Source: Rhodocyclales bacterium
GTDB lineage: Bacteria; Pseudomonadota; Gammaproteobacteria; Burkholderiales; Rhodocyclaceae
Reading direction: 5' to 3'
Assembly (NCBI GenBank): GCA_043743785.1
Contig: JAYTVW010000161.1
Coordinates: 35,063 to 99,062 of the forward strand
DNA: 64,000 bases
This document shows positions 2,836 to 57,574 of this stretch, one piece after another. Every line of letters starts with the position of its first letter. Within the stretch, counting starts at the first letter, position 1. The position numbers and the translations under genes are program-made. The notes below the pieces were generated by a model. That model was not told the DNA's origin. It ran no database searches and saw only the letters and a list, made by a program, of their open reading frames with translations.

Positions 2836-2838
2836 GAC

Positions 2839-18419: not shown

Positions 18420-18437
18420 TCGACCTGGAGGGGCAGC

Positions 18438-18493
18438 GTAGGTCGGGTTTCAACCCGGCAGTCATGGTGCTGTCGGGCTGAAACCCGACCTAC
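18438..18493. repeat. GTAG-type REP pair, family 1 (GTAGGTCGGGTTTCAACCCG / CGGGCTGAAACCCGACCTAC)
   Basis: Inverted pair between the convergent algC and manC genes. Confidence 0.8.
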
Positions 18494-20850: not shown

Positions 20851-21641
20851 GAATCAGCGTCATCGTTACCACCTACAACCGGGTGGACGCGCTGGACCTG
20901 GTGCTGCAATCCCTGTCTGCCCAGACCGACCGCAACTTCGAGGTCATCGTCGCCGACGATGGCTCCAAGGCTGAAACCGGCACCTTCGTGCAGAACTTCT
21001 CCCGCCGCTGCCCCGTGCCGGTGCGCCATATCTGGCAAACGGATTTAGGCTTTCGCGCCGGGCGCATCCGCAACCTGGCCAGCCAGGCCGCCAGCGGCGA
21101 CTATCTCATTTACCTGGATGGGGACTGCCTCGCCCAGGCGGATTTCGTCGCCCGCCACCGGGCCTTGGCCGAACCGGGCCGGACGGTCACCGGTAGCCGC
21201 ATCCTGCTGGAACAGGCACTTACCCAATCCCTGCTCCACACCCGGCACTGGGACGAAACCACCTTCCGCCGTCAGGCCTGGCGCTACCGCCTGGGAGGCC
21301 AGATGAACAAGCTGCTGCCCCTCTTGCTCAAGGTGCCGGACAACCGCCTGCGCCACTACCGGGATTTTGTCTGGCGCCGCATCAAGAGCTGCAACCTGGC
21401 CTGCTGGAAGACGGACGCGGCCGCCATCGGTGGCTTCAGCGCGGATATGGACGGGGGCTGGGGCCACGAGGACGCGGATTTCGTCTTCCGCCTGCACCAG
21501 CACGGCGTGGGGCGCAAGTCCGGCGCCTGGGCCACGGAAGTGCTGCACCTGTGGCACCCCATGGCGAGCCGGGAAAAGACCGAGCCCAACCGCCTGCGCC
21601 TGCAGGCCAAAATTGACGCCTGGCGCGCCAGTGAGCGGTGA
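20847..21641 (+). CDS. family-2 glycosyltransferase
   Basis: GTG start overlapping the previous stop (GTGA). ISVIVTTYNR ... VADDGS ... LDGDC are GT2 motifs. The stop lies inside a heptad-repeat hairpin. Confidence 0.75.
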   Translation: MRISVIVTTYNRVDALDLVLQSLSAQTDRNFEVIVADDGSKAETGTFVQNFSRRCPVPVRHIWQTDLGFRAGRIRNLASQAASGDYLIYLDGDCLAQADFVARHRALAEPGRTVTGSRILLEQALTQSLLHTRHWDETTFRRQAWRYRLGGQMNKLLPLLLKVPDNRLRHYRDFVWRRIKSCNLACWKTDAAAIGGFSADMDGGWGHEDADFVFRLHQHGVGRKSGAWATEVLHLWHPMASREKTEPNRLRLQAKIDAWRASER

Positions 21642-21697
21642 GCGGTGAGCGGTGAGCGGTGAGCAAATCATGTCGCTCACCGCTCACCGCTTACCGC
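21631..21697. repeat. heptad-repeat hairpin (GTGAGCG)n - loop - (CGCTCAC)n
   Basis: Five GTGAGCG/GTGAGCA units, an 8-nt loop, then three CGCTCAC-type units. Overlaps the stop of the GT2 gene. Confidence 0.85.
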
Positions 21698-24682: not shown

Positions 24683-24765
24683 GCGGTGACGGGTAAGCGC
24701 GCTGCTCACCGCTCACCCATCACCGCACATCGCTCACCGCTCACCCATTACCGCTCACCGTTTTC
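24680..24765. repeat. heptad-repeat hairpin region (degenerate GTAAGCG / CGCTCAC units)
   Basis: GTAAGCGGTGACGGGTAAGCG ... CTCACCGCTCACCCATCACCG ... CGCTCACCGCTCACCCATTACCGCTCACCGTTTTCC. Starts at the stop of the 24014-24682 gene. Confidence 0.7.
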
Positions 24766-24777
24766 CCGGAGACCTGC

Positions 24778-25008
24778 ATGCCTCAATCCAACCTGAAACA
24801 GCAAAAAACCTTCACCACCATCCGGGTGGTCGGCGGCCTGAGCGCAGCCGTGGTGCTGGGCTATTCCACGTTTTCCAACTGGCTGGCCGGCGCGCCCCTG
24901 AAGGGTCCCCTGCTGGGCGTCGCCCTGCTCACCCTGGCGGCCATCGCCTATGCCGGCTTTTTTACCTGGAAACTCGGCAAGCTGGTGGAAGAAGAGGGTA
25001 AGCAGTAA
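24778..25008 (+). CDS. small hypothetical membrane protein (76 aa, two hydrophobic segments)
   Basis: GGAGA 8 nt upstream of the ATG. Two TM-like stretches. Bracketed on both sides by heptad-repeat hairpins. Confidence 0.5.
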   Translation: MPQSNLKQQKTFTTIRVVGGLSAAVVLGYSTFSNWLAGAPLKGPLLGVALLTLAAIAYAGFFTWKLGKLVEEEGKQ

Positions 25009-25088
25009 GCGGTGAGAGGTGAGAAAATCATCGCTCATCGCTCATCGCTCATCGCTCATCGCTCATCGCTCACCGCTCACCGCTCACC
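24998..25088. repeat. heptad-repeat hairpin with an 8-unit (TCGCTCA/CCGCTCA) tandem array
   Basis: Left arm GTAAGCAGTAAGCGGTGAGAGGTGAGA. Right arm is five TCGCTCA units (25031-25065), then one further TCGCTCA unit and two CCGCTCA units, ending 2 nt before ATG 25089. Confidence 0.85.
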
Positions 25089-25874
25089 ATGTCCTCCGAT
25101 CCCCTGCTGGAAGCCGTCCTCAAGACCGGCGTCACCCTGCCGACGCCCAGCATCGCCTTTGCCCGTCTGCAGGCCCTGTCGGTGAGTGAGCGGGCCGGTC
25201 CAAGGGAAATGGCGGACGTGGTGGGCAAGGATCCGGCCCTCACCGGCGCCCTCATGCGGGTGGCCAATTCCCCCGTCTTCGGCTGCCGCAGCAAGCCCCG
25301 CTCCGTGCAGGACGCCATCACCCTCCTTGGCCGTACCCGCACCCTGGCGGTCTGCATCAGCACCGCCCTGCGCAGCCAGGCGGAAGGCGTGGACACCCGT
25401 ACGCTGGAAGCGGTATGGGGCGGCAGCCAGAAGGTGGCCGAAGGCGCCTGGCGCTGCGCCCAGGCCAGCCCGGCACGGCGACTGGCGGACCAAGCCTACC
25501 TGGCGGCCCTGTTACACGAAGTGGGTATTCCCATCCTGCTCAAGCGCTACCCCATCTACCTGTTTCTGTTTCAGGACCCCAAGCGTGGGCTGGAAGAATC
25601 CTCCCGGAAACTGGATGAAATAACCCAGGCGGACCACGCTGCCGTCGGCGCCATGGTGGCGCGCAACTGGAAGCTGCCAGTGGAGATTTCGGAAGCCATC
25701 CGCTGCCATCACGACGCGGCCACCGCCGGCCGCCTGCCGGAAGAGGCCGGCACCCTGGCCACGCTCATCGCCTTTGGCCGGCTGCTGCGGGATGGTCCCA
25801 CGGAGGATTGGCTCCCCTGGGCGCCCCTGGCGGATCGCTATCTGAAACTCGACCCGGCGGGGCTGGGGGATTGA
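25089..25874 (+). CDS. HDOD domain-containing signalling protein
   Basis: LPTPSIAFARLQAL ... DPALTGALMRVANSPVFG ... HEVGIPIL ... DHAAVGAMVARNWKLP pattern is typical of HDOD domains. Confidence 0.75.
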   Translation: MSSDPLLEAVLKTGVTLPTPSIAFARLQALSVSERAGPREMADVVGKDPALTGALMRVANSPVFGCRSKPRSVQDAITLLGRTRTLAVCISTALRSQAEGVDTRTLEAVWGGSQKVAEGAWRCAQASPARRLADQAYLAALLHEVGIPILLKRYPIYLFLFQDPKRGLEESSRKLDEITQADHAAVGAMVARNWKLPVEISEAIRCHHDAATAGRLPEEAGTLATLIAFGRLLRDGPTEDWLPWAPLADRYLKLDPAGLGD

Positions 25875-25881
25875 AACTACC

Positions 25882-25945
25882 GTAGGGTGGGCAGGTTTCA
25901 TCTGTCCACGCAGGCGGTGGACACGCTACGCTTTGCCCACTCTAC
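25882..25945. repeat. GTAG-type REP pair, family 2 (GTAGGGTGGGCA...)
   Basis: GTAGGGTGGGCAGGTTTCATCTGTCCAC ... GTGGACACGCTACGCTTTGCCCACTCTAC. Lies between the convergent HDOD and MBL genes. Confidence 0.75.
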
Positions 25946-26907
25946 ACGGGAAAAGGGTAGCCTCTGGCTTCCAGGTCCAGCCAGACTTCCAGGCCCTGGG
26001 CGTTCAGCTCCAGGTCCGTATCCCACAGGGCCAGCAGATCGGCATCCGGCAGGGTGCAACCGAAGGCACGGGATTCCACCAGCAAGAGTTCCTGCAGGCC
26101 AGCCACAATGTTGGCGTGGCGCGCCGTACCCGCCCCCCTCTGCGCCAGGGCGATGTCGCAATGGGAGGCAATGAAACGCTGCATCTCCGCCGCCAGGGCT
26201 GGCACTTCACCGACCCGGCTGAAATGGGTCAGGTAGAGAAATTCAGGTGCGAAGTCGAGCAGGCGCTTGATGGTGGCCACCATGGCGTCCGGCTCGAACT
26301 GGGTGGGCGTGGTGCTCGGAAATATGAACTTCCGGCTATCCGTATCCATCTCCCGGTAGGAAAGTCCAAACACGTCGCCGGTGAAAATGCCCCGGCTCTT
26401 CCGGTCCACGATGGCGATGTGATGGCGGGCGTGGCCCGGCGCATCCACGCACAACAGTTCCCGCCCCGCCAGATCCAGCCTCAGGCCATCCACCGCGTCG
26501 ATGATGCGCGCCGCCGGCACGGGCACGATCTCGCCATACACCCGCTGCACATATTCGGCGCCATACACCGCCGTGACGCCGTCCACCAACCGGGCCGGCG
26601 AAGCCATGTGGCGCGAACCACGGGGATGCACCACCAGACGCGCATTCGGGCAAGCCTGCATGATGCTGCCGGCACCGCCCGCATGATCCAGGTGGATGTG
26701 GGTCAGGATGACGTAATCCACCGCCTCCGGCCCCAGGCCGATGCGCCCCAGGGCATCCAGCAGATGGGGCAGCGCATCGTTGCTGCCGGTATCCACCAGA
26801 GCCACCCGGCCGTTTTCCACCACCAGGTGAATGGCAGCCAACAGGGGGCGCACGTAGTTGGCGCAAAAGGCGTAAACGCCGTTGTTGTAGTCGATCCAGC
26901 GGTGCAT
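25942..26907 (-). CDS. MBL-fold metallo-hydrolase
   Basis: ATG 26907 (MHRWIDYNNGVY). THIHLDHAGG metal-binding motif. The upstream extension in the track was discarded. Confidence 0.8.
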   Translation of the reverse strand: MHRWIDYNNGVYAFCANYVRPLLAAIHLVVENGRVALVDTGSNDALPHLLDALGRIGLGPEAVDYVILTHIHLDHAGGAGSIMQACPNARLVVHPRGSRHMASPARLVDGVTAVYGAEYVQRVYGEIVPVPAARIIDAVDGLRLDLAGRELLCVDAPGHARHHIAIVDRKSRGIFTGDVFGLSYREMDTDSRKFIFPSTTPTQFEPDAMVATIKRLLDFAPEFLYLTHFSRVGEVPALAAEMQRFIASHCDIALAQRGAGTARHANIVAGLQELLLVESRAFGCTLPDADLLALWDTDLELNAQGLEVWLDLEARGYPFPV

Positions 26908-30360: not shown

Positions 30361-30450
30361 GTAGGGCGTCAATAAGCGCAGCGCATTGCGCCGATTTCCC
30401 CGGGTGCGGGCCGCCCAGCGGCGCAATGCCCTTCGGTTATTGCGCCCTAC
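30361..30450. repeat. GTAG-type REP pair, family 3 (GTAGGGCGCAATAAG...)
   Basis: GTAGGGCGTCAATAAGCGCAGCGCATTGCGCCG ... GGCGCAATGCCCTTCGGTTATTGCGCCCTAC. Lies between the convergent vapC and hicB genes. Confidence 0.8.
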
Positions 30451-34587: not shown

Positions 34588-34683
34588 GGGGCGGTACGGC
34601 GGCAAAGGGAGCGCAAGGGTAAGCGCTACGGGCGGAATTTTCAAACGGCGGGCCACCCCGGGGCACCGTTGCAGATGCCGAAC

Positions 34684-34767
34684 GTAGGGCGCAATAAGCG
34701 CAGCGCATTGCGCCGCTGGTTTCGCCACGGCATCGGCGCAATGCGGCTTCGCCTTATTGCGCCCTAC
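34684..34767. repeat. GTAG-type REP pair, family 3
   Basis: GTAGGGCGCAATAAGCGCAGCGCATTGCGCCG ... GGCGCAATGCGGCTTCGCCTTATTGCGCCCTAC. Its terminal CTAC contains the TAG stop of the OMP gene. Confidence 0.8.
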
Positions 34768-36218
34768 TCCCAGCCCCCCCCCAACGCCTTGATCAACCCC
34801 ACGCTTGCCGCCATGCGGCGGGCGCGCAGGGCGCTGGCGGTGCTTTCCGCCCCCAGGGCGGCGGCCTGGGCCGTCACCACATTGAGATAGCTGACGACGC
34901 CGGCCTTGTACTGGTTGGTGGCCAGTTCCAGGGATTTCTTCGCTGCCTGCAAGGCCTCGTCCTGCACTGACGCTTCCCGCTCCAGGATACGCAAGGCCGC
35001 CAGGTTGTCTTCCACGTCCGAGAGTGCGGCCAGCACCGTCTGCCGGTAGCTGGCCACCGTGCCTGCCCAGGCCGCCATGGCCTGGTCCTGCTTCGCGCTC
35101 CTCAAGCCGCCGTCGAAAACCGTCTGGGCCAGGGCCGGACCGAAGGACCAGAAGCGGCTGGGGGCCGAGATCCAACCCACCAGCGCCGAGGACTGCCAGC
35201 CGCCGTTGGCGGAGAGGCTCAGGTCCGGAAAGAAGGCCGCCTTGGCCACGCCGATCTGGGCGTTGGCCGCCGCTACCCGCCGTTCCGCCGCAGCCACATC
35301 CGGGCGCCGTTCCAGCAGCGTCGAGGGCAGGCCGACGGGGATGGCCGGCGGCGGCGCCGTGAGCAGGGGCATGGGCGCAAGAGCAAAGGTGGACGGGGCT
35401 TGCCCCACCAAGAGGGCGATGGCGTGTTCCATCTGGGCACGTTGCACGCCTACATCGAGAGCCTGGGCCTGGGTGCTCTTCAACTGGGTTTGGGCCTGGG
35501 CCACGTCGGCGGCAGCGGCGACGCCGGCCCGGTAGCGGTTCTGCGTCAGCTCCAGGGATTTGGCGTAGCCCGCCACCGTGTCGTCCAGCAACTTCTGTTG
35601 GGCATCCAGGGCGCGCAAGGCGTACCAGTCCTGGGCCAGGGTCGCCTGGAGGGACAGCTTTGTCGCCGCCAGGTCCGCCGCGCTGGCCTCCACCCCCGCC
35701 GCCGCCGCCTCGACAGCACGGCGCACGCCGCCCCACAGGTCCGTTTCCCAACTGGCTTGCAGGGACAGGCTGTGGCTGGTGGCCACGCCGCTGGACGACG
35801 ACGTACGGCTGGACGCCTCGGAACGTATCGACGAGGCGTTGGCGCCCACGCTGGGGAACTGGCCGGCCCTTGCCTGGGCTGAGAGGGCCACCGAAGCCCG
35901 GTACTGGGCTTCCGCGAGACGCAGGTTCTGGTTCGACACCGCCACCCGCTCTTCCAGGGCATTCAGGCCCTCGTCACCGAAAACTTGCCACCACTTGCCC
36001 CGGGGCAAGGCATCCGCCGGTACCGCCGGCTTCCAGCCGACCGCTTCCTTGAACGCCGCCGGCACCTCGCTCGTCGGCTTCACGTAATCGGGGCCGACGG
36101 TGCAGCCGGCCAGCGAAAGCAATAAAGCCAAATTAAACGCCGAGGCGCCGAGGCGCCGAGGAAGGCATGAGAACGACGAATCTTGGCAATCGTCCACGAC
36201 CGCAGATATGTTGTCCAT
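34764..36218 (-). CDS. RND efflux outer-membrane lipoprotein (NodT/OprM family)
   Basis: Lipobox LLLSLAGC, TolC-like repeats and a C-terminal ALGGGWE. The start is uncertain because the 5' end lies inside a repeat element. The TAG stop lies in a REP. Confidence 0.85.
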   Translation of the reverse strand: MDNISAVVDDCQDSSFSCLPRRLGASAFNLALLLSLAGCTVGPDYVKPTSEVPAAFKEAVGWKPAVPADALPRGKWWQVFGDEGLNALEERVAVSNQNLRLAEAQYRASVALSAQARAGQFPSVGANASSIRSEASSRTSSSSGVATSHSLSLQASWETDLWGGVRRAVEAAAAGVEASAADLAATKLSLQATLAQDWYALRALDAQQKLLDDTVAGYAKSLELTQNRYRAGVAAAADVAQAQTQLKSTQAQALDVGVQRAQMEHAIALLVGQAPSTFALAPMPLLTAPPPAIPVGLPSTLLERRPDVAAAERRVAAANAQIGVAKAAFFPDLSLSANGGWQSSALVGWISAPSRFWSFGPALAQTVFDGGLRSAKQDQAMAAWAGTVASYRQTVLAALSDVEDNLAALRILEREASVQDEALQAAKKSLELATNQYKAGVVSYLNVVTAQAAALGAESTASALRARRMAASVGLIKALGGGWE

Positions 36219-36255
36219 CGAGGTTTTCTCCGCGCCTCGGCGCCTCGGCGTTTCA
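36135..36255. repeat. octamer-armed inverted-repeat element (family A), copy 1
   Basis: AAACGCCGAGGCGCCGAGGCGCCGAGG ... CTCCGCGCCTCGGCGCCTCGGCGTTTCAA around a ~65-nt loop. Fills the mdtC-OMP spacer. Confidence 0.85.
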
Positions 36256-36265
36256 ATACAGACTT

Positions 36266-39200
36266 TCATATTCCGTTCTCCACCGGTTCCTGCACGGGGC
36301 CAGCCTTCTTGCCGCGGGCAAGCCACAGGCGGAAGCGGTCCATGTAGAGATAAACCACCGGGGTGGTGTAGAGGGTCAGGAGCTGGCTCACCGCCAGGCC
36401 ACCGACGATGGAAATGCCCAAGGGTTGGCGCAGCTCCGAGCCTTCGCCACCCCCCAGAGCCAGGGGCAGGGCGCCCAGCATGGCCGCCAGGGTGGTCATC
36501 ATGATGGGCCGGAAACGCAGCAGACAGGCCTGGCGGATGGCCTCCCGGGGGGGCAGGCCCTGGCTGCGCTCCGCCTCCAGGGCGAAGTCGATCATCATGA
36601 TGGCGTTTTTCTTGACGATACCGATGAGGAGCAGCACGCCGATCATGGCCATGACGGAGAACTCACTGCCGAAGGCCATCAGGGCCAAGAGCGCCCCCAC
36701 CCCCGCCGAGGGCAGGGTGGACAAGATAGTGATGGGGTGGATGGTGCTCTCGTAGAGCACGCCCAGCACCAGGTAGAGCGTCACCAGAGCCGTCAGGATC
36801 AGGATGGGCTGGCTGGCAAGGGACTGCTGGAAGGCCTTGGCCGTGCCCTGGAAGCTGCCCTGCACGGTAGACGGCGCCCCCACCTGGGCCATGGCGCCCT
36901 GGATGAGGCGGGTAGCGTCCGAGAGGGAGGTGCCAGGCACCAGGTTGAAGGAAATCGTCGAGGCGGCGAACTGGCCCTGGTGATTCACCGACAGGGACTG
37001 GCTGGCCGGGCCGAAGCTCGCCACCGCCGACAGGGGCACCTGGGTCGGCAGCGTGCCGGCGGCACCGGGCACGCTCAGCCACAGCTTGGACAGGGAATCC
37101 GCGTTCTGCCAGTAGCGGGGCGCCGCCTCCATGACCACGTGGTACTGGTTGAGGGCCGCGTAAATGGTGGAGGCCTGGCGCTGGCCGTAGGCGTCATTCA
37201 AGGTGGCATCCACCAGCCGGGGCGACACCCTCAGGCGGGCGGCGGTGTCCCGGTCAATGGTCACAAAGGTGGACTGGCCCTTGTCCTGCTGGTCCGTATT
37301 CACGTCCGCCAGTTGGGGCAGGTCGGAAAGAGCCTTTCGCACCTTCGGCTCCCAAGTGCGCAGTTCCGTCAGGTCGTCCGCCTGCAGGGTGAATTGCCAC
37401 TGGGCATTGCTGGCCCGCCCGCCCATGCGGATATCCTGGACCGGCTGCAGGAACAGGTTGGCCCCCGGCTCCTTCGAGAGCTTGCCGCGCAGGCGGTTGA
37501 TGACCTGGTCCGCCGACACCTGGCGTTCGCGCAGGGGCTTCAGGGCGATGAACATCATGCCGGTATTCTTCTGACCGCCGCCGGTGAAGCCCACCACGTT
37601 ATCCACCGCCGGATCCTGGCGCACGATTTCCATGAAAGAGGTGAGTTTGCCGCGCATGGCCTGGAAGGAAATGCCCTGGTCCGCCTGGATGTTGCCGGTA
37701 AGCCGCCCTGTGTCCTGCTGGGGGAAAAAGCCCTTGGGCACCACGGCGTAGAGATAGAAGTTGAGTCCCACGGTGAAGAGCAGAATCAGCATGATGAGGG
37801 GCCGGTGATCCAGAGCCCAGCCCAGGCTCCTGCCATAGCCGGCCTGCAAGCGGGCAAAGCCCTTTTCGGTCCACCGGGAAAAGCCCCCCCATCGATTACG
37901 CGGAGCATCGCGACGCTCGACGCTCCCCTCTCCCCCCGGGAGAGGGGCGGGGGGTGAGGGATCTGACTTCCGAATCGGTTTCAGCCAGCGGGCACAGAGC
38001 ATGGGCGTGGCGGTGAGGGACACCACCAGGGAAATCAGGATGGCCGAGGACAGCACCACGGCGAATTCCCGGAACAGCCGCCCCAGGATGCCCCCCATGA
38101 ACAGGATGGGAATGAACACCGCCACCAGGGACACGCTCATGGACAGCACGGTGAAGCCCACTTCCCGCGCCCCCTTGAGGGCAGCGTCGAGGGGCGTTTC
38201 CCCTGCTTCGATGTGCCGCATGATGTTTTCCAGCACCACGATGGCGTCGTCCACCACGAAGCCGGTGGCCACGGTCAAGGCCATGAGGGACAGGTTGTCC
38301 AGGCTGTAGCCGCACAGGTACATGACGGCGAAGGTGCCCCCCAGGGACACGGGCACCGCCACGGCGGGAATCAGGGTGGCGGGCCCGTTGCCGAGAAACA
38401 GGAACACCACCAGGATCACCAGGCCGAAGGAAATCATCAGACTGCGTTCCACTTCCCGCAGGGACGCCCGAATGGTGGTGGTACGCTCCACGGCCACGTT
38501 CACGTCGATGGAACCCGGAATGGAGGCCTTGAGGGCCGGCAGCAGCGCCTTCACCCGCTCCACGGTTTCGATGATGTTGGCGCCGGGCTGGCGGTTGATG
38601 ATGACCAACACGGAGGGCTGGGCGTTGGAGAGGCCGGCGTTACGCAGGTCCTCCACCGAATCCACCACTTCCTCGGAGACATCCGCGAGGCGCACGGCGG
38701 CGCCGTTCCTGTAGGAAATAATCAGGGGCAGGTATTCGGCGGCGGTGCGGGCCTGGTCATTGGCGGTGATCTGCCAGTGCTTGTCACCCTCCTCCAGGTC
38801 GCCCTTGGGGCGGTTGGCATTGGCAGCGGCCAGGGCCGTGCGCACGTCCTCCAGGCCGATGCCGTACTTGTGCAGGGCCAGGGGATTCAATTCCACCCGC
38901 ACGGCGGGCAGGGAACTGCCCCCCACGGACACCTGGCCCACGCCTTCGATCTGGGCCAGCTTCTGGGCCAGGATGGTGGAGGCGGCGTCATAGATGCGCC
39001 CCTGGCTGAGCGTCGGCGAGGTCAAGGCCAGGATCATCACCGGTGCATCCGCTGGATTCACCTTGCGGTAGGTGGGATTGCCCGGCATGCCGGTGGGCAG
39101 GAGACTCCTGGCGGCGGCGATGGCGCCCTGCACATCCCGGGCCGCACCGTTAATGTCCCGGTCCAGGTCGAATTGCAGGGTAATGCGAGTGTTGCCCAGG

Positions 39201-39454
39201 GAGCTGGAGGACGTGATCTCCGTGATGCCGGCAATGCGCCCCAGGGATCGCTCCAGGGGCGTGGCCACCGTGGCCGCCATGGTCTCCGGACTGGCGCCGG
39301 GGAGCGACGCCTGCACCGAGATGGTGGGGAAATCCACCTGGGGCAGGGGTGACACGGGCAGCAACTGAAAGCCCAACAAGCCCGCCAGAAAAATCGCCAG
39401 CGTCAGCAAGGTCGTCGCCACCGGCCGGTGGATGAAGGGCGCGGAGAGGTTCAT
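36266..39454 (-). CDS. mdtC: RND multidrug efflux permease (MdtC-like)
   Basis: ATG 39454: [18 protein letters not shown]. 12-TM AcrB/MdtC architecture. Second of two tandem RND permeases. Contains an in-frame repeat insertion near 37.9 kb. Confidence 0.9.
37900..37971. repeat. family B element inside the mdtC coding sequence
   Basis: CCCCTCTCCCCCCGGGAGAGGGG (37925-37947) followed by CGGGGGGTGAGGG, alignable with the 11.2 kb copy. Read in frame as [22 protein letters not shown]. Confidence 0.75.
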
Positions 39455-39488
39455 GCCGCAGCCATCCTTGAACCCGAAAAACAAAAGG

Positions 39489-39620: not shown

Positions 39621-42600
39621 TCATTCTTCCTTCCCCCCCCGAAAGCGCCGGGCCAGGCGGTCGAAGGCCAGGTAGATGACGGGGGTGGTGAACAGGGTCA
39701 GGGCCTGGGACACCAGGAGGCCGCCCACCATGGTGATGCCCAGGGGGTGACGCAGTTCGGAACCCACGCCGTTGCCCAGCATCAGCGGCAGGGCGCCCAG
39801 CAGGGCCGCCAGGGTCGTCATCATGATGGGGCGGAAACGCAGGAGGCAGGCCTGGTGGATGGCTTCCCGGGGCGACATCCCCAGGTTCCTCTCCGCGTCC
39901 AGGGCGAAGTCGATCATCATGATGGCGTTCTTCTTGACGATGCCGATCAGGAGAATGATGCCGATGATGCCGATGATGCCCAGGTCGTTGCCGGAAACCA
40001 TCAGGGCCAGCAGCGCCCCCACGCCGGCGGAGGGCAGGGTGGACAGGATGGTGATGGGATGGATGTAGCTCTCGTAGAGCACCCCCAGCACGATGTACAT
40101 GCTCACCACCGCCGCCAGAATCAGCAGTAACTGGTTGTCGAGGGAGGCCCGGAAGGCGGCGGCTGCGCCCTGGAAGCGGGTCTGCAGGCTGGCGGGCATG
40201 CCGATTTCCGCTTCCGCCGCCTCAATGGCCTTGACCGCCGCCCCCAGGGAGGCCCCCGGGGCCAGGTTGAAAGACAGGGTCGCCGAAGGGAACTGGCCCT
40301 GGTGATTCACCACCAGGGCTGCCGGCCGCTCTTCCACATGCACCAGGGCCGACAGAGGCACCTGGCCGCCGCTGGCGGTGGTGAGGCGCAGGTTGTCAAT
40401 GGCAGACAGGCCTTTCCTGAATTCCGGCTTCACTTCCAGCACCACCCGGTACTGGTTGGACTGGGTGAAGATGGTGGACACCAGGCGCTGGCCGAAGGCG
40501 TCGTAGAGGGCGTTGGAAATGGCCGCCGGGGTGACGCCTAAGCGCCCGGCGGTATCCCGGTCAATGGAGATATAGGCCTGCAGGCCCTGGTCCATCAAGT
40601 CGCTGGCCACTTCCCGCAGTTCCGGCACTTTGGCCAGCCGCTCCACCAGTTTCGGCACCCACAGGGCCAGTTCCACGGGATTCGCGTCTTCCACCGAGAA
40701 CTGGTACTGGGTGCGGCTGACCCGGTCCTCAATGGTCAGATCCTGGATAGGCTGCATGAACAGGGTCACACCCGGGGTGGCTGCCAATTTATCCTGCAGC
40801 CGCGCCATGACCACCTGCACGCTGCCCCGCTCTTCCCTGGGCTTCAGGTTGATGAGCAGGCGCCCGCTGTTCAAGGTGGTGTTCACCCCATCCACGCCGA
40901 TGAAGGACGACAGGCTGTCCACCCCCGGATCTTTCAAGACCACCGCCGCCACGGCCTGCTGGCGTTCCGACATGGCGGCAAAGGATATGGACTGGGGCGC
41001 CTCGGTGATGCCCTGGATCACCCCCGTGTCCTGCAGCGGGAAGAAGCCCTTGGGCACATAGACGTAGAGCAGCACCGTCAGCAAAAGCGTGCCGACGGCC
41101 ACCATCAAGGTGGCGGTCTGGTGATTCAGCACGCGAATCAGCAGGCGGTCGTAGCCGGCAATGACGCGCTCGATGAAGGCACCGCTGGCGTGGTAGAAGC
41201 GGCCCTGCTTTTCTTCCGGCACATGGGTGAGCAGGCGCGCGCAGAGCATGGGCGTGAGGGTCAGGGACACCACGGCGGAAATCAGGATGGCCACCGCCAG
41301 GGTGATGGCGAATTCCCGGAACAGCCGCCCCACCACGTCCCCCATGAACAACAGGGGAATCAGCACGGCGATCAGGGAAATGGTCAGGGAAATGATGGTG
41401 AAGCCGATCTGCTTGGCCCCCTTGAGGGCCGCCTGCATGGGTGGATCACCGGCCTCCAGGTAGCGAGCGATGTTCTCGATCATCACGATGGCGTCGTCCA
41501 CCACGAAACCGGTGGCAATGGTCATGGCCATCAGGGTCAGGTTATTGATGGAGAAACCCGCCAGATACATGACGCCAAAGGTGCCCACCAGCGAAAGCGG
41601 CACCGCCACGCTGGGAATAAGCGTGGCCGGCAGGTTCCGGAGGAACAGGAAGATCACCATCACCACCAGCACCACGGCGAGGAAAAGTTCCACCTGCACG
41701 TCGTTCACCGAGGCCCGGATGGTCACGGTGCGGTCGGTCAGGGGCGTCACCTCAATGGAACCCGGCAGGGTGGTACGCAACTGGGGCAGGAGCTTCTGGA
41801 TGCGGTCTACCACCTCGATGACATTGGCGCCGGGCTGGCGCTGGATGTTGAGGATGACGGCGGCGGACTCGTTGGCCCAGGCGGCGAGGCGCACGTTCTC
41901 CGCGTCCTCGATGACATCGGCCACGTCGAGAAGGCGAATGGGGGCGCCGTTTTTATAGGCGATGATGACTTTGCGGTAGTCCTCGGCAGAGCGGATCTGG
42001 TCATTGGCGTCCAGGGTGGAAGCCCGGGTCGGGCCGTCGAAACTGCCCTTGGCAAGATTGACGTTGGCGTTGCCCAAAGCCGTGCGCAGATCCTCCAGGC
42101 TCATGCCGTAGGCCGACAGAGCCTTGGGATTGGCCTGCACCCGCACGGCGGGACGCTGGCCGCCGCTGATGCTGACCAGCCCGACGCCGGGCAGTTGGGA
42201 AATCTTCTGGGCCAGGCGCGTGTCGGCGAAGTCCTCCACCTTGGACAGGGGCAGGGTCTTCGAAGTGAGGGCCAGGGCCATGATGGGGGCGTCCGCCGGA
42301 TTCACCTTGCTGTAGATCGGCGGCATGGGCAGATCCGTGGGCAGATAGGTGCCGGAAGCATTGATGGCCGCCTGCACCTGCTGCTCCGCCACGTCCAGGC
42401 TCAGAGCCAGGGAGAACTGCAGGGTGATGACGGAAGCCCCGCCAGAACTGGTGGACGACATCTGGGACAGCCCGGGCATCTGGCCGAACTGGCGCTCCAG
42501 GGGCGCGGTAATGCTGGACGTAACCACGTCCGGGCTGGCACCGGGATAGAGGGTGGTGACCTGAATGGTGGGGTAATCCACCTGGGGCAGGGCCGAGATG

Positions 42601-42698
42601 GGTAAGAGCCGATAGGCCACCAGCCCGGACAGCAGGATGGCCAGCATCAGCAACGTCGTCGCCACCGGCCGCAGGATGAACAGGCGGGAGGGGTTCAC
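39621..42698 (-). CDS. mdtB: RND multidrug efflux permease (MdtB-like)
   Basis: GTG start, [18 protein letters not shown]. 1025 aa with AcrB-family architecture. Follows the MFP gene. Confidence 0.9.
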
Positions 42699-42726
42699 CA
42701 GACGATCCCTCTTTGCAAAAAGCTAT

Positions 42727-42879
42727 TTGAAACGCCGAGGCGCAGAGGCGCCGAGAACACCAAAGAAACATCCGCGGGAGCCCTTCGTAGGTCGGGTTTT
42801 AACCCGACATTCAATCTCGCTGTCGGGTTAAAACCAGACCTACGATTTTCCTCGGCGCCTCGGCGCCTCGGCGTTTCAA
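42727..42879. repeat. octamer-armed inverted-repeat element (family A), copy 3, with a nested GTAG-REP pair
   Basis: TTGAAACGCCGAGGCGCAGAGGCGCCGAG ... CTCGGCGCCTCGGCGCCTCGGCGTTTCAA. Fills the mdtA-mdtB spacer. Confidence 0.85.
42787..42843. repeat. GTAG-type REP pair, family 1, nested in family-A element copy 3
   Basis: GTAGGTCGGGTTTTAACCCGACA ... TGTCGGGTTAAAACCAGACCTAC. Confidence 0.8.
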
Positions 42880-42894
42880 TCAGTTTTTCCGGCT

Positions 42895-47217: not shown

Positions 47218-48558
47218 ATGACCAAGAAAGTCTATATCCGCACCTTCGGCTGCCAGATGAACGAGTACGACTCGGACAAGATGGTGGACGTTCTCGTCCA
47301 GCAAGCCGGAGCCGACGGCCTGGAAAAGACGGACCGCCCCGAAGACGCGGACATCATCCTGTTCAACACCTGTTCCATCCGGGAAAAAGCCCAGGAAAAG
47401 GTCTTCCACGACCTGGGCCGGGTACGCACCCTGAAACTCGCCAAGCCAAGCCTGATCATCGGCGTCGGCGGCTGCGTGGCCAGCCAGGAAGGGGCCGCCA
47501 TCATTGGCCGGGCGCCCTATGTGGACGTGGTCTTCGGGCCGCAAACCCTGCACCGGCTGCCGGAACTCATCCAGCAGCGGCGGGCCACGGGCAAGGCCCA
47601 GGTAGATGTGTCCTTCCCGGAAATCGAGAAGTTCGACAACATGCCGCCAGCCAAGGTGGAGGGGGCCACGGCCTTCGTTTCCATCATGGAAGGCTGTTCC
47701 AAGTTCTGCACTTACTGCATCGTGCCCTTCACCCGAGGTGACGAAGTCTCCCGCCCCCTGGCGGACATCCTCACCGAAATCGCCGGACTAGCCCAGCAGG
47801 GCGTCAAGGAAATCACCCTCTTGGGCCAGAACGTGAATGCCTGGCGCGGTCTCATGGACGACGGCAGTACCGCCGACCTGGCCTTCTTGCTGGAAATCGC
47901 GGCCGACGTGCCGGGGATCGAGCGCCTGCGCTTCACCACTTCCCACCCACGGGAATTCAACGCCCGGCTGGTGGACGTGTATACCCGGGTGCCCAAGCTG
48001 GTGAGCCACCTGCACCTGCCGGTGCAGTCAGGCTCTGACCGGGTGCTGGCGGCCATGAAGCGCGGCTACACCGTGCTGGAATACAAGAGCCTCGTGCGGA
48101 AAATCCGCGCCGCCCGGCCCGACATCTGCCTGTCCTCCGACTTCATCGTCGGCTTCCCCGGCGAGACCGAGGCCGACTTCGAGGCCACCATGAAGCTCAT
48201 CGAGGATGTGAGGTTCGACGCCTCCTTCAGCTTCATTTTCAGCCCCCGCCCGGGCACTCCGGCGGCGGACATGGCGGACGACACGCCAGCGGAAGTGAAA
48301 TCCGCCCGCCTCAAGCGCCTGCAGACGCGCATCGAGGAACTGGCCCAGGAAGTGAACCAGTCCATGGTGGGCAGCATCCAGCGGGTGCTGGTGGAAGGCC
48401 ACGCCAAGAAGGATGCCCTGGAACTGGCGGGCCGCACCGACAACAACCGCATCGTGAATTTCGCAGGGAATGCGCGCCTGCTGCACCAGTTCGTGGACGT
48501 ACGCATCACCTCCTCCCTGCCCCACTCCCTGCGCGGCGAGATCCTGGTAAAGGAATGA
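47218..48558 (+). CDS. miaB: tRNA-2-methylthio-N6-dimethylallyladenosine synthase
   Basis: [17 protein letters not shown]-terminus and the radical-SAM motif [12 protein letters not shown]-terminal TRAM domain. Confidence 0.93.
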
Positions 48559-48559
48559 C

Positions 48560-48690
48560 TTTGAAACGCCGAGGCGCCGAGGCGCCGAGAAACCCGAGAA
48601 CAATGCCGGTGCTGGCATCCCCGCATCCCGAGTCCGCGCATACGGGGCAGCCCTTGTCTTTCCTCTGCGCCTCTGCGCCTCGGCGTTTGA
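48560..48690. repeat. octamer-armed inverted-repeat element (family A), copy 4
   Basis: TTTGAAACGCCGAGGCGCCGAGGCGCCGAG ... CCTCTGCGCCTCTGCGCCTCGGCGTTTGA. Lies in the miaB-phoH spacer, starting 2 nt after the miaB stop. Confidence 0.85.
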
Positions 48691-48730
48691 GAACAGCTTT
48701 TCAACAGAACTCACTCCCGTCGCAGGCGCA

Positions 48731-51102: not shown

Positions 51103-51120
51103 GCCCGGTTTCAAAAGCAT

Positions 51121-51265
51121 TTTCACCGCAGAGACGCAGAGGCGCAGAGGAAAGCCAAAGCTGTCGTAGGTCGGGTTTCAACCCGACAGGCACGCGGGCA
51201 TGGACTTGTCGGGCTGAAGCCGGACCTACCGTTCTTCTCTGCGCCTCTGCGCCTCTGCGTTTCAA
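51121..51265. repeat. octamer-armed inverted-repeat element (family A), copy 5, CAGAGG variant with a nested GTAG-REP pair
   Basis: TTTCACCGCAGAGACGCAGAGGCGCAGAGG ... CTCTGCGCCTCTGCGCCTCTGCGTTTCAA. Lies in the corC-lnt spacer. Confidence 0.85.
51166..51229. repeat. GTAG-type REP pair, family 1, nested in family-A element copy 5
   Basis: GTAGGTCGGGTTTCAACCCGACAG ... TTGTCGGGCTGAAGCCGGACCTAC. Confidence 0.8.
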
Positions 51266-51280
51266 TCCGGCTTTTCAAGC

Positions 51281-52861
51281 ATGAAGTCCTCGGCCCATTT
51301 CGCCCGGGCCTTCGGCCTGGGAGTTCTGTCGGTGGGCGGGTTTGCCCCTTTCGGGCTTATTCCCCTCACGCCCCTGGCCCTGGCCGGCGTGTTTTTCCTC
51401 TGGCGCAGGCACCCGGAAAAAGCGCCCCTGGCGGGATGGAGCTACGGCTTCGGCCTGTTCCTGGCCGGCGTTTCCTGGATCTATGTGAGCCTGCACCAGT
51501 TCGGCGGCATGGCGGCGCCCCTGTCGCTGCTAGCCGTGGCACTGTTCGCCGCCGTCATGGCCCTCTACCCTCTAATTGCGGGCTGGCTGTTCCGCCGCTT
51601 CCAGGGCACAAGCTGGCTGACGGACGCCCTGTTGGCCGCAGCCTGCTGGACCCTGATGGAGTGGGTGCGGGGCTGGATGTTCACCGGCTTTCCCTGGCTG
51701 GTGGCCGGCTATTCCCAGACGCCCCCCAGCCCCCTGGCCGGCTTCGCCCCCCTCTTCGGCGTGTACGGCATCACCCTGGCGCTGACGCTTGCCGCAGCGC
51801 TCATCGCCTTCGCGTGGGGCGAACGAGCCCATCTGCGCACCAGCGGCGGCTTCCTCGGCTTATTGCTGCTGGCGGGCGCCCTGCTGCTGCCCATTGCCTG
51901 GACCACACCCCGGCCCACGGCGATTGAAGTGAGTCTGCTGCAGGGCAACATCGAGCAAAGCCTGAAATGGCGCCCGGAACTCCTGGATCTATCCCTCAAC
52001 ACTTACCAGAAACTGGCCCGGGAGAATCCGGCGCGTATCCTGGTGCTGCCGGAAACCGCCCTGCCCATCGCCCTGGAACGCCTGCCCCTGTCCTATCTGG
52101 AGACCCTGCGGGGCGGCAAGGGAGCGGGCTCGACTTTACAAGACGCCCCTGAGCATGAAAGTCGTGCCCGTTCTCCCTCCCCCCCCCGCCCCTCTCCCCT
52201 GAAGGGCGAGGGGAGCGTCGTGAGTCGCTCCGCGACTTTCGTAGAACGGGACGTGATCATCGGCGCCATCACTTTCGACCAGGCGGGCAACCCGTATAAC
52301 GCCGCCGTGAGTTTCGGCGCCGCCCCCAGCCAGCGCTACGCCAAGTCCCACCTGGTGGCCTTCGGCGAATTCACGCCGCCCCTCTTCAAATGGACCCTGG
52401 ACTTGCTGTCCATCCCCATGTCGGACCTGTCCCGGGGCACCCTGAACCAGCCGCCCCTGGCCCTGGCCGGGGAAAAGATCGCCGTGAATATCTGCTACGA
52501 GGATGTCTTCGGCGAGGAAATCATACGCGCCCTGCCGGAGGCGACCATCCTGCTGAACCTCTCCAACACCGCCTGGTTCGGGGACTCCTTCGCCCAGCCC
52601 CAACACCTGCAGATTTCCCGCATGCGCGCCCTGGAAACCGGCCGCCCCATGCTGCGCGCCACCAACACCGGCATGACGGCAGCAATCGCCCCTGATGGCA
52701 CCGTCCTGGGTGTCCTGCCCCCCTTCACCGTCGGCGCCCTGAAAGTAACGGTGCACGGCTATGAGGGCCTCACCCCCTACGCCCGCTGGGGCAACTGGCC
52801 GGCCATCCTGGCCTGCCTGGGGATGCTGGGCTACGCCGTCTGGCGCAAACGCAAGGCGTAG
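51281..52861 (+). CDS. lnt: apolipoprotein N-acyltransferase
   Basis: N-terminal TM region plus a nitrilase-like domain with LPETA, KSHLVAFGE and NICYED (catalytic Glu/Lys/Cys contexts). Contains an in-frame 84-nt repeat element at 52157-52240. Confidence 0.9.
   Translation: MKSSAHFARAFGLGVLSVGGFAPFGLIPLTPLALAGVFFLWRRHPEKAPLAGWSYGFGLFLAGVSWIYVSLHQFGGMAAPLSLLAVALFAAVMALYPLIAGWLFRRFQGTSWLTDALLAAACWTLMEWVRGWMFTGFPWLVAGYSQTPPSPLAGFAPLFGVYGITLALTLAAALIAFAWGERAHLRTSGGFLGLLLLAGALLLPIAWTTPRPTAIEVSLLQGNIEQSLKWRPELLDLSLNTYQKLARENPARILVLPETALPIALERLPLSYLETLRGGKGAGSTLQDAPEHESRARSPSPPRPSPLKGEGSVVSRSATFVERDVIIGAITFDQAGNPYNAAVSFGAAPSQRYAKSHLVAFGEFTPPLFKWTLDLLSIPMSDLSRGTLNQPPLALAGEKIAVNICYEDVFGEEIIRALPEATILLNLSNTAWFGDSFAQPQHLQISRMRALETGRPMLRATNTGMTAAIAPDGTVLGVLPPFTVGALKVTVHGYEGLTPYARWGNWPAILACLGMLGYAVWRKRKA
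52157..52240. repeat. family B element inside the lnt coding sequence
   Basis: GAAAGTCG...CCCCTCTCCCCTGAAGGGCGAGGGGAGCGTCGTGAGTCGCTCCGCGACTTTC, the reverse orientation of the 11.2 kb copy. 84 nt, starting on a codon boundary. Confidence 0.8.
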
Positions 52862-53104: not shown

Positions 53105-53220
53105 TAAACGCCGAGACGCCGAGGAATACTTGAGAAACCAATCAGCCTCACCCATTTGGTGAGCCCACGATTGTTGCCATATCTTTGTTTTCTCGGCGCC
53201 TCTGCGCCTCGGCGTTTCAA
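53105..53220. repeat. octamer-armed inverted-repeat element (family A), copy 6
   Basis: TAAACGCCGAGACGCCGAGG ... CTCGGCGCCTCTGCGCCTCGGCGTTTCAA. Starts 2 nt after the DUF3820 gene stop. Confidence 0.8.
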
Positions 53221-53225
53221 ACAGT

Positions 53226-54032
53226 TCAGCGCGGGAAGTTCAGGGTGGTGGGGAAGGTCAGCTCATAGATGCGGTAGCTGCCGGAGCCCTGGGCGCTGGC
53301 GAGTTTGTAAGCACTCCTGGCTGACTGCAGGAGCAATTCGGCCTCCACCCCATGCTCGGGAAACAGGCTGATGCCGATGGCGGCGCCCACATGGACGGCG
53401 CTTCCGTCCGCCAGCGTGAGGGGCGTCTGAAGCAAGCGAATCATTTCCAGCGCCAGGGACTCTGCATCCAGGGAGGCGGCCAGGTTTTCCAGCACCAGAA
53501 CAAAGTGATCGCTGTCAATCCGCGCCAGGGTATCCAGTTCCCGCCAGCGCTGTTTCAGGCGTTGGGCCACCCCCTGCAACACCTCCTCCTGGGCGCCGAA
53601 ACCCCGTTGCCCATCCGGTCCGATATATAGCACGGCACCAAGCTCGCCATTGCGACGCACCCGCGCCAGGGTATGGTTCAGGCGAATGGAGAGCAGCAAG
53701 GGGCTGGGCAGGTCGGTCACGGCGTCGTAGAGGTCCGCATGTTCCTCGGGTCTGGTCTCGGCAAGCGCCGTGGGCATGGCCCGGTCAGGCGCCGTGTCCC
53801 CCCCTTCTTTCCCCGCAGCAGGCGCTATTGGCCCCGCGCCGTGAGGAAGGGCCGTTCTGCCCTCGAGCATGCTGACAATTCCGCCGTGAGCACCTTTGGC
53901 CGTTGCGCCATAGGGCGACTCCAGCAGCAGGGGAACATAGGTTTGGAAAGCGTCCAGCGCCTCCTCCCTTGAGAACACCTCGAAGGTAAATCGCAGATCC
54001 GGATTTGAGTCGGAAGAAACGGTGATCTTCAT
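53226..54032 (-). CDS. degenerate GGDEF-domain protein
   Basis: C-terminal half aligns with diguanylate-cyclase domains (DAVTDLPS ... LARIDSDHFVLVL ... IGISLFPEHG), but the GG[DE]EF site reads IDSDHF. Confidence 0.65.
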   Translation of the reverse strand: MKITVSSDSNPDLRFTFEVFSREEALDAFQTYVPLLLESPYGATAKGAHGGIVSMLEGRTALPHGAGPIAPAAGKEGGDTAPDRAMPTALAETRPEEHADLYDAVTDLPSPLLLSIRLNHTLARVRRNGELGAVLYIGPDGQRGFGAQEEVLQGVAQRLKQRWRELDTLARIDSDHFVLVLENLAASLDAESLALEMIRLLQTPLTLADGSAVHVGAAIGISLFPEHGVEAELLLQSARSAYKLASAQGSGSYRIYELTFPTTLNFPR

Positions 54033-54062
54033 AGGGATTTTCGGAAAATTCGTGTTCCACCC

Positions 54063-54146
54063 GTAGGTCGGGCTTCAGCCCGACCCACAATTGAGCGCGC
54101 AGGATGCGCAGGGAATGCTGGGCACGCTGCGCTTTGCCCACCCTAC
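54063..54146. repeat. chimeric REP pair (family 1 left unit, family 2 right unit)
   Basis: GTAGGTCGGGCTTCAGCCCGAC ... GGGCACGCTGCGCTTTGCCCACCCTAC. Confidence 0.7.
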
Positions 54147-54150
54147 AACA

Positions 54151-56472: not shown

Positions 56473-56558
56473 GTAGGGCGCAATAAGGCGAAGCCGCATT
56501 GCGCCGATTTCGTGGCAAAGCATAACAGGCGCAATGCGCTGCGCTTATTGCGCCCTAC
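56473..56558. repeat. GTAG-type REP pair, family 3
   Basis: GTAGGGCGCAATAAGGCGAAGCCGCATTGCGCCG ... GGCGCAATGCGCTGCGCTTATTGCGCCCTAC. Its terminal CTAC contains the TAG stop of the EamA gene. Confidence 0.8.
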
Positions 56559-57502
56559 TTTCGGCTGATGATCAATATCCCGCCAATCACCAGCACGGCA
56601 CCCAGCAACTGCCACAGGGACAGGCTTTCCCCCAGCAGCAGCCAGCCAAAGAGAATGGTGGCCAAGGGACCTACCATGCCCACCAGGGACGCCCGCCCCG
56701 CCCCCAAGGCCTTGATGGCCGCCGACTGCATGAACACCGGCAGCACGGTAGACACCGCCGCCATGGCGAAGGCCAGGGCGTACACGGGCCAGCTCTGGTG
56801 CAGGATGTCCCCCAGAGGCCGGGCCAGCAGGTAATGCAGCAGGGTACCGAGTGTCGCCACCGCCATGGCCAGGGCCGTGAAGCGGGCGCTGCCCAAGCGA
56901 GCGATGAACTGGCCGCCGCCCGACAGATACACGGCGTAGGACAGACTGGAGGCGAACACCAGGCCGGCCCCCGTCCACACGGCGACCGCATCCGCCGCCT
57001 GCTGCAGGTCGTGGGCGAAGGCCGCCGCCACCCCCAGGTAGGTGAGCAGAATGGCCAGCACCTCCTTCCGGTGCAGGGTCTTGCCGAAGAACAGCACCCC
57101 CATGAGTACCGTCAGGGTCGGGTAGGTAAACAGGATCAGGCGCTCCAGGCCCGCCGTGATGTACTGCAGCCCCCAAAAATCCAGGATGCTGGCGCCGTAG
57201 TAGCCCGCCAGGCCCACCACCACCAGGGCCAGCCACTGCCGGGGCGTGAGGCTGGCGCCGCTCCGGGTGCGTAGCGCCGCGATGCCGAAGACCGGTGCGG
57301 CAAAGGCCATGCGCAGGGCCAGCAGGGTCACTGCATCCACCGGCACGCCCCCCGGCACCCGGTAGGCCAGCTTCACCAGGATGGCCTTGAACGAAAAGCC
57401 AAAGGCCGCCCCCACCGCCAGCCAGAAGCCCCGGCGATACACCGCCTTGCGCTCTGCGGCGACGTCAGGCGCTAGTGTGGCAACAGGGGCGGGAGCGGAC
57501 AT
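56555..57502 (-). CDS. EamA/DMT-family transporter
   Basis: 315 aa, about 10 TM segments in two EamA-like halves. The TAG stop lies inside a REP. Confidence 0.8.
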   Translation of the reverse strand: MSAPAPVATLAPDVAAERKAVYRRGFWLAVGAAFGFSFKAILVKLAYRVPGGVPVDAVTLLALRMAFAAPVFGIAALRTRSGASLTPRQWLALVVVGLAGYYGASILDFWGLQYITAGLERLILFTYPTLTVLMGVLFFGKTLHRKEVLAILLTYLGVAAAFAHDLQQAADAVAVWTGAGLVFASSLSYAVYLSGGGQFIARLGSARFTALAMAVATLGTLLHYLLARPLGDILHQSWPVYALAFAMAAVSTVLPVFMQSAAIKALGAGRASLVGMVGPLATILFGWLLLGESLSLWQLLGAVLVIGGILIISRK

Positions 57503-57574
57503 GGCGGGTAATAACGAAATGGCCCCGCATTACGCCACAGGCGGCGCGGCAGCACAATGGCGGGGCCATCGCCT

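Follow-up and report, generated by a model that had tools for sequence, protein, structure and literature searches.

How a dispersed, hairpin-rich DNA repeat can come to lie in the reading frame of an efflux pump gene that appears to be in working order is the question raised by a 64-kb stretch (C161:35063-99062, hereafter the window) of a metagenome-assembled genome (MAG) from the family Rhodocyclaceae (G000; 4.6 Mb, 171 contigs, 62% G+C, 2.6% contamination). The gene, which is mdtC-like and encodes a permease of the resistance-nodulation-division (RND) type (Pfam ACR_tran), lies at window positions 36266..39454 on the minus strand and comprises 1062 intact codons plus a stop; it is part of an uninterrupted minus-strand open reading frame (ORF; 36266-39484), within which the protein (P0003, 1062 residues) starts at the ATG at 39454 (MNLSAP). 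An earlier reading made from the letters of the window (the sequence-only reading) had noted a repeat at 37900-37971 that resembles copies at 11138-11219 and in lnt, and had taken it for an in-frame insertion. The family match was borne out, while the extents had to be revised to 37895-37975 and 11131-11248. Our comparisons indicate that the repeat has very probably been inserted in frame into a live mdtC, as the 1062-codon frame is intact, the insert matches the repeat family at E = 2.1e-14, and the alignment with the closest orthologue contains a single gap of 23 residues.

The element-derived insert (37895..37975) measures 81 nt, or 27 codons, lies in plus orientation as a repeat, is read on the minus strand, and represents an internally deleted short form of an element that is otherwise 120-140 nt long. 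Its palindrome CCCCTCTCCCCCCGGGAGAGGGG (window 37925-37947) belongs to a motif of the type known as BoxC, potential intrastrand triplex (PIT) or TMECO, which was located by regular expression at 37926..37960 on the plus strand, the template strand of mdtC, and reads CCCTCTCCC-CCC-GGGAGAGGG-gcgggg-GGGTGAGGG. A degenerate remnant of the first hairpin of the full element, CGCG-GAGCAT-CGCG (37899..37912, plus strand), matches the consensus GTCGCG-tca-GCGAC and pairs in the predicted RNA fold. The nhmmer match of the mdtC copy to the family profile covers C161:72971-73024 and profile positions 44-97, and over stretches of 35-43 nt its core shares 95-97% identity with copies elsewhere in the genome. 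Compared with the empty site of relatives, where the flanks align cleanly, the site is about 90 nt instead of about 21 nt long, a net gain of 69 nt or 23 residues; the approximately 22 extra residues of the sequence-only reading were thus a real extra segment, although the net gain is 23 and the element-derived codons number 27. Because MAFFT DNA alignments across the insert junctions were unreliable, the boundaries were placed by codon-level comparison, the family consensus serving as a guide for a visual extension of the insert at both ends, leaving an uncertainty of about 2 codons around the element codons I-R-K-S-D...P-R-N. Judged from variant copies of the family with which the insert was compared, 81 nt stem from the element, both element ends seem to be kept, with internal deletions, and about four host codons seem to have been lost at the junctions.

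The family to which this copy belongs was surveyed in the whole assembly. A regular-expression search returned 90 core hairpins with conserved flanks, and an nhmmer profile made from 69 genomic core copies of this set gave 147 hits, which merged into 141 loci: 72 of at least 110 nt, 47 of 60-109 nt and 22 shorter ones. The full unit of about 120-140 nt, TTACCGTGAAAGTCGCGtcaGCGACTCACGACGCT-CCCCTCTCCC-tcc-GGGAGAGGGG-ctgg-GGGTGAGGG-AAACCGGCATGGCTTTCAT...AAAGCCATGCCGG, consists of hairpin 1, a central hairpin that forms the BoxC/TMECO triplex motif together with a third, G-rich block, and hairpin 3. Within the window, the pattern CCCTCNCCC-N2-7-GGGNGAGGG is matched three times, at 11168, 37926 and 52190, where 100 dinucleotide-preserving shuffles gave an expectation of 0.00, and the three copies align far past the palindrome itself. 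The full-length reference copy (11131-11248, plus strand, equivalent to G000:C161:46193-46310) is mostly intergenic and 86% identical to the consensus; with its 3' end it extends into the 3' end of a minus-strand ORF (11218-13200), to which it may supply the last codons and the stop. Full-length elements are found in this genome, in the other species of the genus (G001; 107 candidates at a first look) and, more sparsely, in one other genus (G002), while the bare core is widespread across the order. Neither the mdtC region nor a long-variant copy nor the DUF559 locus discussed further below matched any Rfam family.

BoxC, PIT and TMECO are names for one repeat with the pattern 5'-CCCTCNCCC-N3-6-GGGNGAGGG-N3-GGGNGAGGG, which occurs 3610 times across 262 proteobacterial genomes, forms an intrastrand triplex in vitro, is tied to local genomic instability in E. 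coli and is described as lying between genes without exception in E. coli K-12 (Holder et al., 2015; PMC4666352, where the original BoxC papers and those of the Maher group on PIT are cited). The copy in mdtC fits this pattern exactly in its three blocks and its first loop, while its second loop has 6 nt instead of 3; it is a perfect match to a relaxed pattern with a second loop of 3-6 nt, which 71 copies in the genome fit, compared with a single copy for the strict form. By its sequence, the core of the family would be a motif of BoxC/PIT/TMECO type with a longer second loop, and it may form a triplex. The three-block layout (CCCTCNCCC, loop, GGGNGAGGG, loop, GGGNGAGGG) and the near-identical sequence are common to both, as are the dispersed, multi-copy occurrence with no associated transposase and the differences in copy number and sequence type between close relatives. 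In contrast to BoxC/PIT/TMECO, the second loop has 5-6 nt rather than 3, the motif is the centre of a 120-140-nt unit with two added hairpins, and some 15 loci lie inside reading frames, whereas the copies in E. coli K-12 are intergenic. No BoxC/PIT/TMECO repeat inside a reading frame was reported in the literature searched, and the intergenic location is a descriptive rather than a defining feature of these repeats.

In eight copies of the family, some 82 nt of additional sequence are nested within the core hairpin, always at the same point (in G000, C4:12587-12795 (L129), C4:6239-6449, C28:34803-35017, C48:4078-4293, C75:17483-17697, C99:50850-51065, C20:44077-44290 and C89:38614-38829). The nested piece has a three-hairpin fold with compensatory changes in 5 pairs and no Rfam match, and it may itself be a small element for which the first one is the target.

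The comparison with relatives bears directly on whether the segment in mdtC was gained or is ancestral. It is absent from the MdtC orthologues of 11 further genera, which belong to the family and order, and alignment shows that the mdtB-like paralogue of the same operon (39621..42698, minus strand), which serves as an internal control, also lacks it at the equivalent loop, in agreement with the sequence-only reading. The three closest relatives retrieved by a global protein search, all from other metagenomes (P0004, P0005 and P0006), are 90-92% identical and likewise lack the segment; their empty site reads WLKPASERKPGRFFRW in P0004 and P0006 and WLKPVEERKPGRFFRW in P0005 or, in a longer reading, WLKPASERKPGRFFRWSERGF and WLKPVEERKPGRFFRWTERGF, respectively. 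P0003 and P0004 are 90% identical over their full length, with the gap of 23 residues, exactly at the insert, as the sole gap. Further carriers occur only in a sister clade of the same genus, and its one member with a genome compared, G001, is rich in the repeat. Against an empty-site orthologue (L021), mdtC shows a ratio of nonsynonymous to synonymous substitution (dN/dS) of 0.14 at a dS of 0.35, which indicates that the gene is under purifying selection. In addition, an identical protein of 1062 residues is encoded in two further ENA metagenome assemblies (contigs of 114 kb and 189 kb, different assemblers), and the neighbourhood of MdtB, MdtC and an outer-membrane factor is kept, including in both of these.

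These results contradict the two circumstances under which the sequence-only reading would have fallen, an ancestral peptide (the 11 other genera and the three closest relatives have none) and a pseudogene (the frame is intact, dN/dS is low and the operon context is kept). Since the dN/dS value is accompanied by an identical protein in the same context in two other assemblies, a pseudogene or an assembly chimera is very unlikely. Taken together, the view that the segment is no repeat insertion at all, be it an ancestral or independently arisen low-complexity loop, an assembly artefact or a pseudogene, is hardly credible. It could appeal to the fragmented state of the MAG with its residual contamination, to the ease with which assemblers can be misled by repeats and to the unclean junctions, but it has to contend with a DNA match to the family for which no chance matches are expected, with the lack of the segment in all outgroups and nearest relatives, with an mdtC that is contiguous and in frame on both flanks, with its recovery by different assemblers and with the signature of purifying selection. 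Apart from this issue, we observed that P0005 has a separate Ala/Thr/Pro-rich insert of about 26 residues (SVPAAAATATGVPATPAGAAGASVTPASLVTSGTPPAQ, residues ~795-835) in the periplasmic domain, and that P0006 resembles a recombinant or chimera, its first third being P0005-like and the remainder P0004-like.

Where the inserted residues fall in the protein was assessed with structures and models. The best solved relative is MdtB (9lyq_B, E = 4.6e-302), and in this alignment the insert falls in a gap right after ...TPMMCARML, the end of transmembrane helix 6 (TM6). In an AlphaFold2 model (residue numbering as in P0001, that is, P0003 + 10), one helix spans 465-500 and the next 534-559; no secondary structure is predicted at 501-533, and the predicted local distance difference test score (pLDDT) is below 50 at 505-532. 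From the helix ends and the low pLDDT in this model, the extra residues are predicted to lengthen an unstructured loop after TM6, and both the MdtB alignment and the model agree with the placement in the sequence-only reading, immediately after TM6 in the cytoplasmic linker between TM6 and TM7. In RND pumps such as AcrB, the post-TM6 linker is cytoplasmic, precedes the horizontal helix before TM7, and is remote from both the path of the substrate and the proton relay.

The evidence shows that a copy of the dispersed, non-coding, hairpin-rich repeat has entered mdtC at the codons for this post-TM6 cytoplasmic loop. As the 81-nt short form adds 69 nt net and is read in a stop-free frame, the gene has stayed open, and it is predicted to encode a pump with a Pro-, Gly- and charge-rich loop that is 23 residues longer. 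The peptide is presumably translated and tolerated, most likely as a passenger with no new function, in a cytoplasmic loop that would lack structure and differ in length from one RND pump to another. Its frame and location would then be explained by survivorship: gene-breaking insertions would be purged by selection, and what is left would be in-frame, stop-free copies where some dozen genes encode loops and linkers that tolerate them.

Other genes of this genome carry the repeat as well. All 147 hits were screened for a frame running through the repeat with at least 60 codons per side and for coding-type G+C content at the three codon positions (GC1/GC2/GC3) on both flanks, by which about 15-16 of the 141 loci (~11%) are in-frame genic copies, in 12 genes. 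This share is far below the coding fraction expected of random landing, which fits the removal of gene-breaking insertions by selection. Besides mdtC, the hosts confirmed by Pfam domains that flank the insert or are split by it are Lnt, PurL (just before the glutaminase domain), a UvrD/Rep helicase, ArgJ, an AraC-family regulator, an E2 acyltransferase (in the inter-lipoyl linker), a FadB-like enzyme, a GT9 heptosyltransferase, a PD-(D/E)XK nuclease-family protein, a 2051-residue alpha-2-macroglobulin with 4 sites, and an Eco57I-like methylase. Two candidate hosts were rejected, one (C41:30660) being located in a spurious ORF extension upstream of mltA, the other (C121:15765) having no Pfam support; two longer matches among the related loci (L073 and L101) proved to be fragments or duplications and hold no inserts. 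Of the six frames of the consensus short form, three are open, and in a fourth the sole stop lies in the variable hairpin-1 loop. Several frames are used by the genic copies, the one that yields a particular 14-residue peptide being the commonest with 6 of about 17 genic hits, a sample too small to reveal any bias beyond stop avoidance.

In five of these hosts, the presence of the insert could be compared among relatives. A full-length copy lies in frame in lnt (gene 51281-52861, plus strand; copy 52124..52249, minus strand), where it is read as 42 residues (AGSTLQDAPEHESRARSPSPPRPSPLKGEGSVVSRSATFVER) flanked by the Pfam domains LNT_N and CN_hydrolase; of the 13 genomes with an Lnt match, the 12 other than our own, among them G001 of the same genus, all lack Lnt residues ~279-322, with the matched parts abutting. 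A phmmer search with these 42 residues against 1.84 billion representatives gave three weak hits (E 9e-5 to 1e-3), the query being too short and of low complexity. The PurL insert (25 residues) is absent in G001, G002 and G005, and the match in G007 is about 21 residues shorter, consistent with absence; the FadB-like insert (25 residues) is absent in G002, G005 and G007, and the match in G001 is about 29 residues shorter, again consistent with absence. The UvrD insert, located in the N-terminal helicase domain, occurs at an identical site in both species of the genus (L110, G000:C159; L131, G001:C16, ORF 1492-3840, minus strand) with recognisably orthologous peptides (PPSPLAPLPEGEGNVER and TPSLPLAPSLEGEGNVVR), while it is absent in G005 and the matches in G002 and G007 are 13-15 residues shorter. 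By these sequence comparisons, entry into the gene is dated after the split of the two species in four of the five tested cases. The shared uvrD insert and the lineage-specific others together indicate that insertion of the family into genes goes back a long way.

The mdtC site itself has a more complicated history. Both G001 (P0008, 79% identical) and the metagenomic relative P0007 carry inserts in the same loop, offset by 0-3 codons and with orientation and frame unchanged; the G001 site reads LKGRRKDADMGLDTPSPRLRGEGDVVSRGVQLAQPGRLYRW, and the insert in P0007 is a head-to-head dimer of two cores. A maximum-likelihood tree places P0003 with P0004, P0005 and P0006 in one clade (A) and G001 with P0007 in another (B), the latter with 100% support. 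The core of the G001 insert, CCCTCGCCCCGC-ctg-CGGGGAGAGGG, recurs in G001 at a further 39 loci with an identity of 84-97%, which reaches at least 92% in 36 cases, and has no match in the present genome at E <=0.01. The insert in our genome, in turn, matches its own genome's variant at 95-97%, and it is still a perfect motif though dS to the nearest relative is 0.35. On the strength of these sequences, the insertion in our lineage is probably recent and independent of that in the sister clade, which suggests repeated colonisation of one permissive site, although gene conversion could mimic such a pattern of independent gains. The empty site as read from the sequence holds a small inverted repeat, CGGAAG-N11-CTTCCG, and this palindrome may be the landing site.

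Several points weigh against our interpretation. The mdtC insert does not have clean junctions, and a target-site duplication is not recognisable there or at lnt; with about four host codons missing as well, the junctions do not demonstrate simple cut-and-paste or copy-in transposition. The AlphaFold2 model was built from an alignment of only 14 sequences and has a mean pLDDT of 75.5 and a predicted template modelling score of 0.70, and the neutrality of the insert is deduced from its location only. Furthermore, the branching order within clade A is not settled by the tree, so that our lineage is possibly basal to the empty-site relatives, and one gain followed by one precise loss is then as parsimonious as two gains. 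This last point leads to a different history, in which a single old insertion at the base of the genus was precisely excised in P0004, P0005 and P0006 and the remaining copies were later homogenised by gene conversion to each genome's variant. Site, orientation and frame are common to both clades, both filled alleles share a host stretch that is two codons shorter (K-x-x-R-K versus KPASERK), and the uvrD insert demonstrates that a copy can last since before the split of the two species. The two mdtC inserts nevertheless differ in core variant and length and have no derived changes in common, whereas the shared uvrD insert keeps a derived GEGNV; each matches only the variant of its own genome, our copy has kept its perfect triplex motif at the dS given above, and the empty site looks ancestral, being scarless when compared with outgroups. 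We thus regard a single old insertion as possible but rather unlikely, and favour independent gains in the two clades.

The recurrence at one loop also bears on whether the peptide is kept because it is useful, either for pump assembly or regulation through the loop, or because a triplex or hairpin in the DNA or mRNA tunes the expression of the distal part of the operon. The colonisation of the same loop in two clades, doubled in P0007, and the long retention of the uvrD insert are compatible with such a role, as are an RNA fold of the region slightly better than that of shuffled sequences (z = -2.06) and the link of triplex motifs to local genomic instability in E. coli (PMC4666352). On the other hand, this z-score is weak, the peptide is predicted to be disordered, its sequence is merely the translation of the repeat in that frame, the host genes are functionally unrelated, and the closest relatives manage without it. 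A useful peptide is in our opinion quite improbable, and a tolerated passenger accounts better for these observations.

No cognate transposase was seen for the repeat family, and the sole Y1 (IS200/RAYT-type) gene in the genome, on a 3.2-kb contig (C86), is not flanked by it. The genome contains four DUF559 matches, none within 3 kb of a family copy. One DUF559 gene, for a Vsr-like nuclease (C9:8231-8533; locus C9:8129-8580, L130), lies between a gene for a copper-binding protein and a CusA-like gene and has on either side, in inverted arrangement, triplex-type motifs that belong to a different variant (CCCCTCCCC-ttcaa-GGGGAGGGG-cca-GGGGTGGGG), and a second (C87:6087-6401) sits among motifs of the form CCCCCC-tttgaaaaa-GGGGGG-tga-GGGGGG. 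It is tempting to speculate that BoxC-type triplex repeats are actively mobile and choose their targets here, by structure-directed insertion into hairpin-forming DNA. This idea is drawn from what would be an independent colonisation of the same few codons of the MdtC TM6 loop in two clades, each by the variant of its own genome, with a third event in the P0007 dimer, and from the palindrome at the empty site and the eight copies with a piece nested at a fixed point. Related motifs bracket genes of DUF559 nucleases, and these enzymes would possibly drive insertion in trans, while genes would be hit wherever hairpins coincide with permissive loops. We put this scenario forward as an unlikely one.

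Among known systems, a close parallel in behaviour is provided by the Rickettsia palindromic elements (RPEs; Ogata et al., 2000/2002), which are described in PMC10969869 and PMC3733652 as palindromic repeats of about 100-150 bp, many of them in frame in unrelated, functional housekeeping genes. In-frame copies in many unrelated genes with intact frames, empty alleles in relatives and encoded peptides in loops or on the surface are features of both. In contrast, the host here is a free-living, GC-rich betaproteobacterium and not an obligate intracellular alphaproteobacterium, and about 11% of the loci are genic, compared with nearly half for some RPE families. The likeness to RPEs pointed out in the sequence-only reading is apt as an analogy, with in-frame copies in about 12 genes, whereas the BoxC/PIT/TMECO-like triplex core and the Rhodocyclaceae host set the family apart, and we do not claim that it belongs to the RPEs. 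In its behaviour, the family can be regarded as an analogue of RPEs outside Rickettsia.

Thauera is classed with the Rhodocyclaceae. This genus also appears in a survey of intragenic GTAG and CGTC repetitive extragenic palindromes (REPs; Di Nocera, De Gregorio & Rocco, 2013; PMC3733652), which, like our family, are short palindromic repeats inside known genes of several species, with UvrD/Rep helicases and other repair genes among the hosts, and whose inserts encode 20-80 residues. Our family differs in that its architecture shows no GTAG tag and no CGTC tag (CGTC REP stems have 8-9 bp and start with A/T pairs), and, unlike in REP/REPtron systems, no RAYT gene flanks it. [quoted passage not shown] CATGAAAG); no target-site duplication is visible at mdtC or lnt, and neither clear terminal inverted repeats matching known insertion sequences nor a parent transposase were found. 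In-frame palindromic repeats are thus already known in principle, and what is added here is a triplex-motif family, a free-living host and pairs of filled and empty alleles, together with one loop that has apparently been hit recurrently.

Beside Rickettsia and the REP survey, this genome offers a second natural system in which working genes are colonised in frame, in a free-living, GC-rich betaproteobacterium, and it places the BoxC/PIT/TMECO repeat, unexplained since the 1990s and described as intergenic, in a new location. The filled and empty pairs, found for mdtC among relatives of about 90% identity and, when the two species of the genus are compared, for lnt, purL and the fadB-like gene, permit tests of the tolerance of random peptides, of the rate of repeat movement and of landing sites. 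For annotation, Pro/Gly-rich stretches of the type 'PSPPxPLPxGEGSV' in proteins of this group are to be read as repeat-derived and not as domain features.

The window also contains repeats of other kinds. A separate family with tandem-octamer arms (CGCCGAGG / CGCAGAGG), capped by TTGAAA...TTTCAA, flanks the mdtB-mdtC operon and neighbouring genes (36124-36268, 42718-42891, 48553-48703, 51113-51277 and 53182-53232). At least three GTAG-tagged REP families, mostly present as inverted pairs and separate from the family of the mdtC repeat, are characterised by GTAGGTCGGG..., GTAGGGTGGGCA... and GTAGGGCGCAATAAG...; copies of these families lie at 18437-18493, 42786-42843, 51165-51229 and 54062-54089, at 25917-25951, 54111-54147 and 57569-57610, and at 30415-30450, 34677-34767 and 56473-56565. 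Finally, tandem repeats of 7 nt (GTGAGCG / TCACCGC, also TCATCGC) occur at 21631-21697 and 24692-25110, in opposite orientations and about 3 kb apart.

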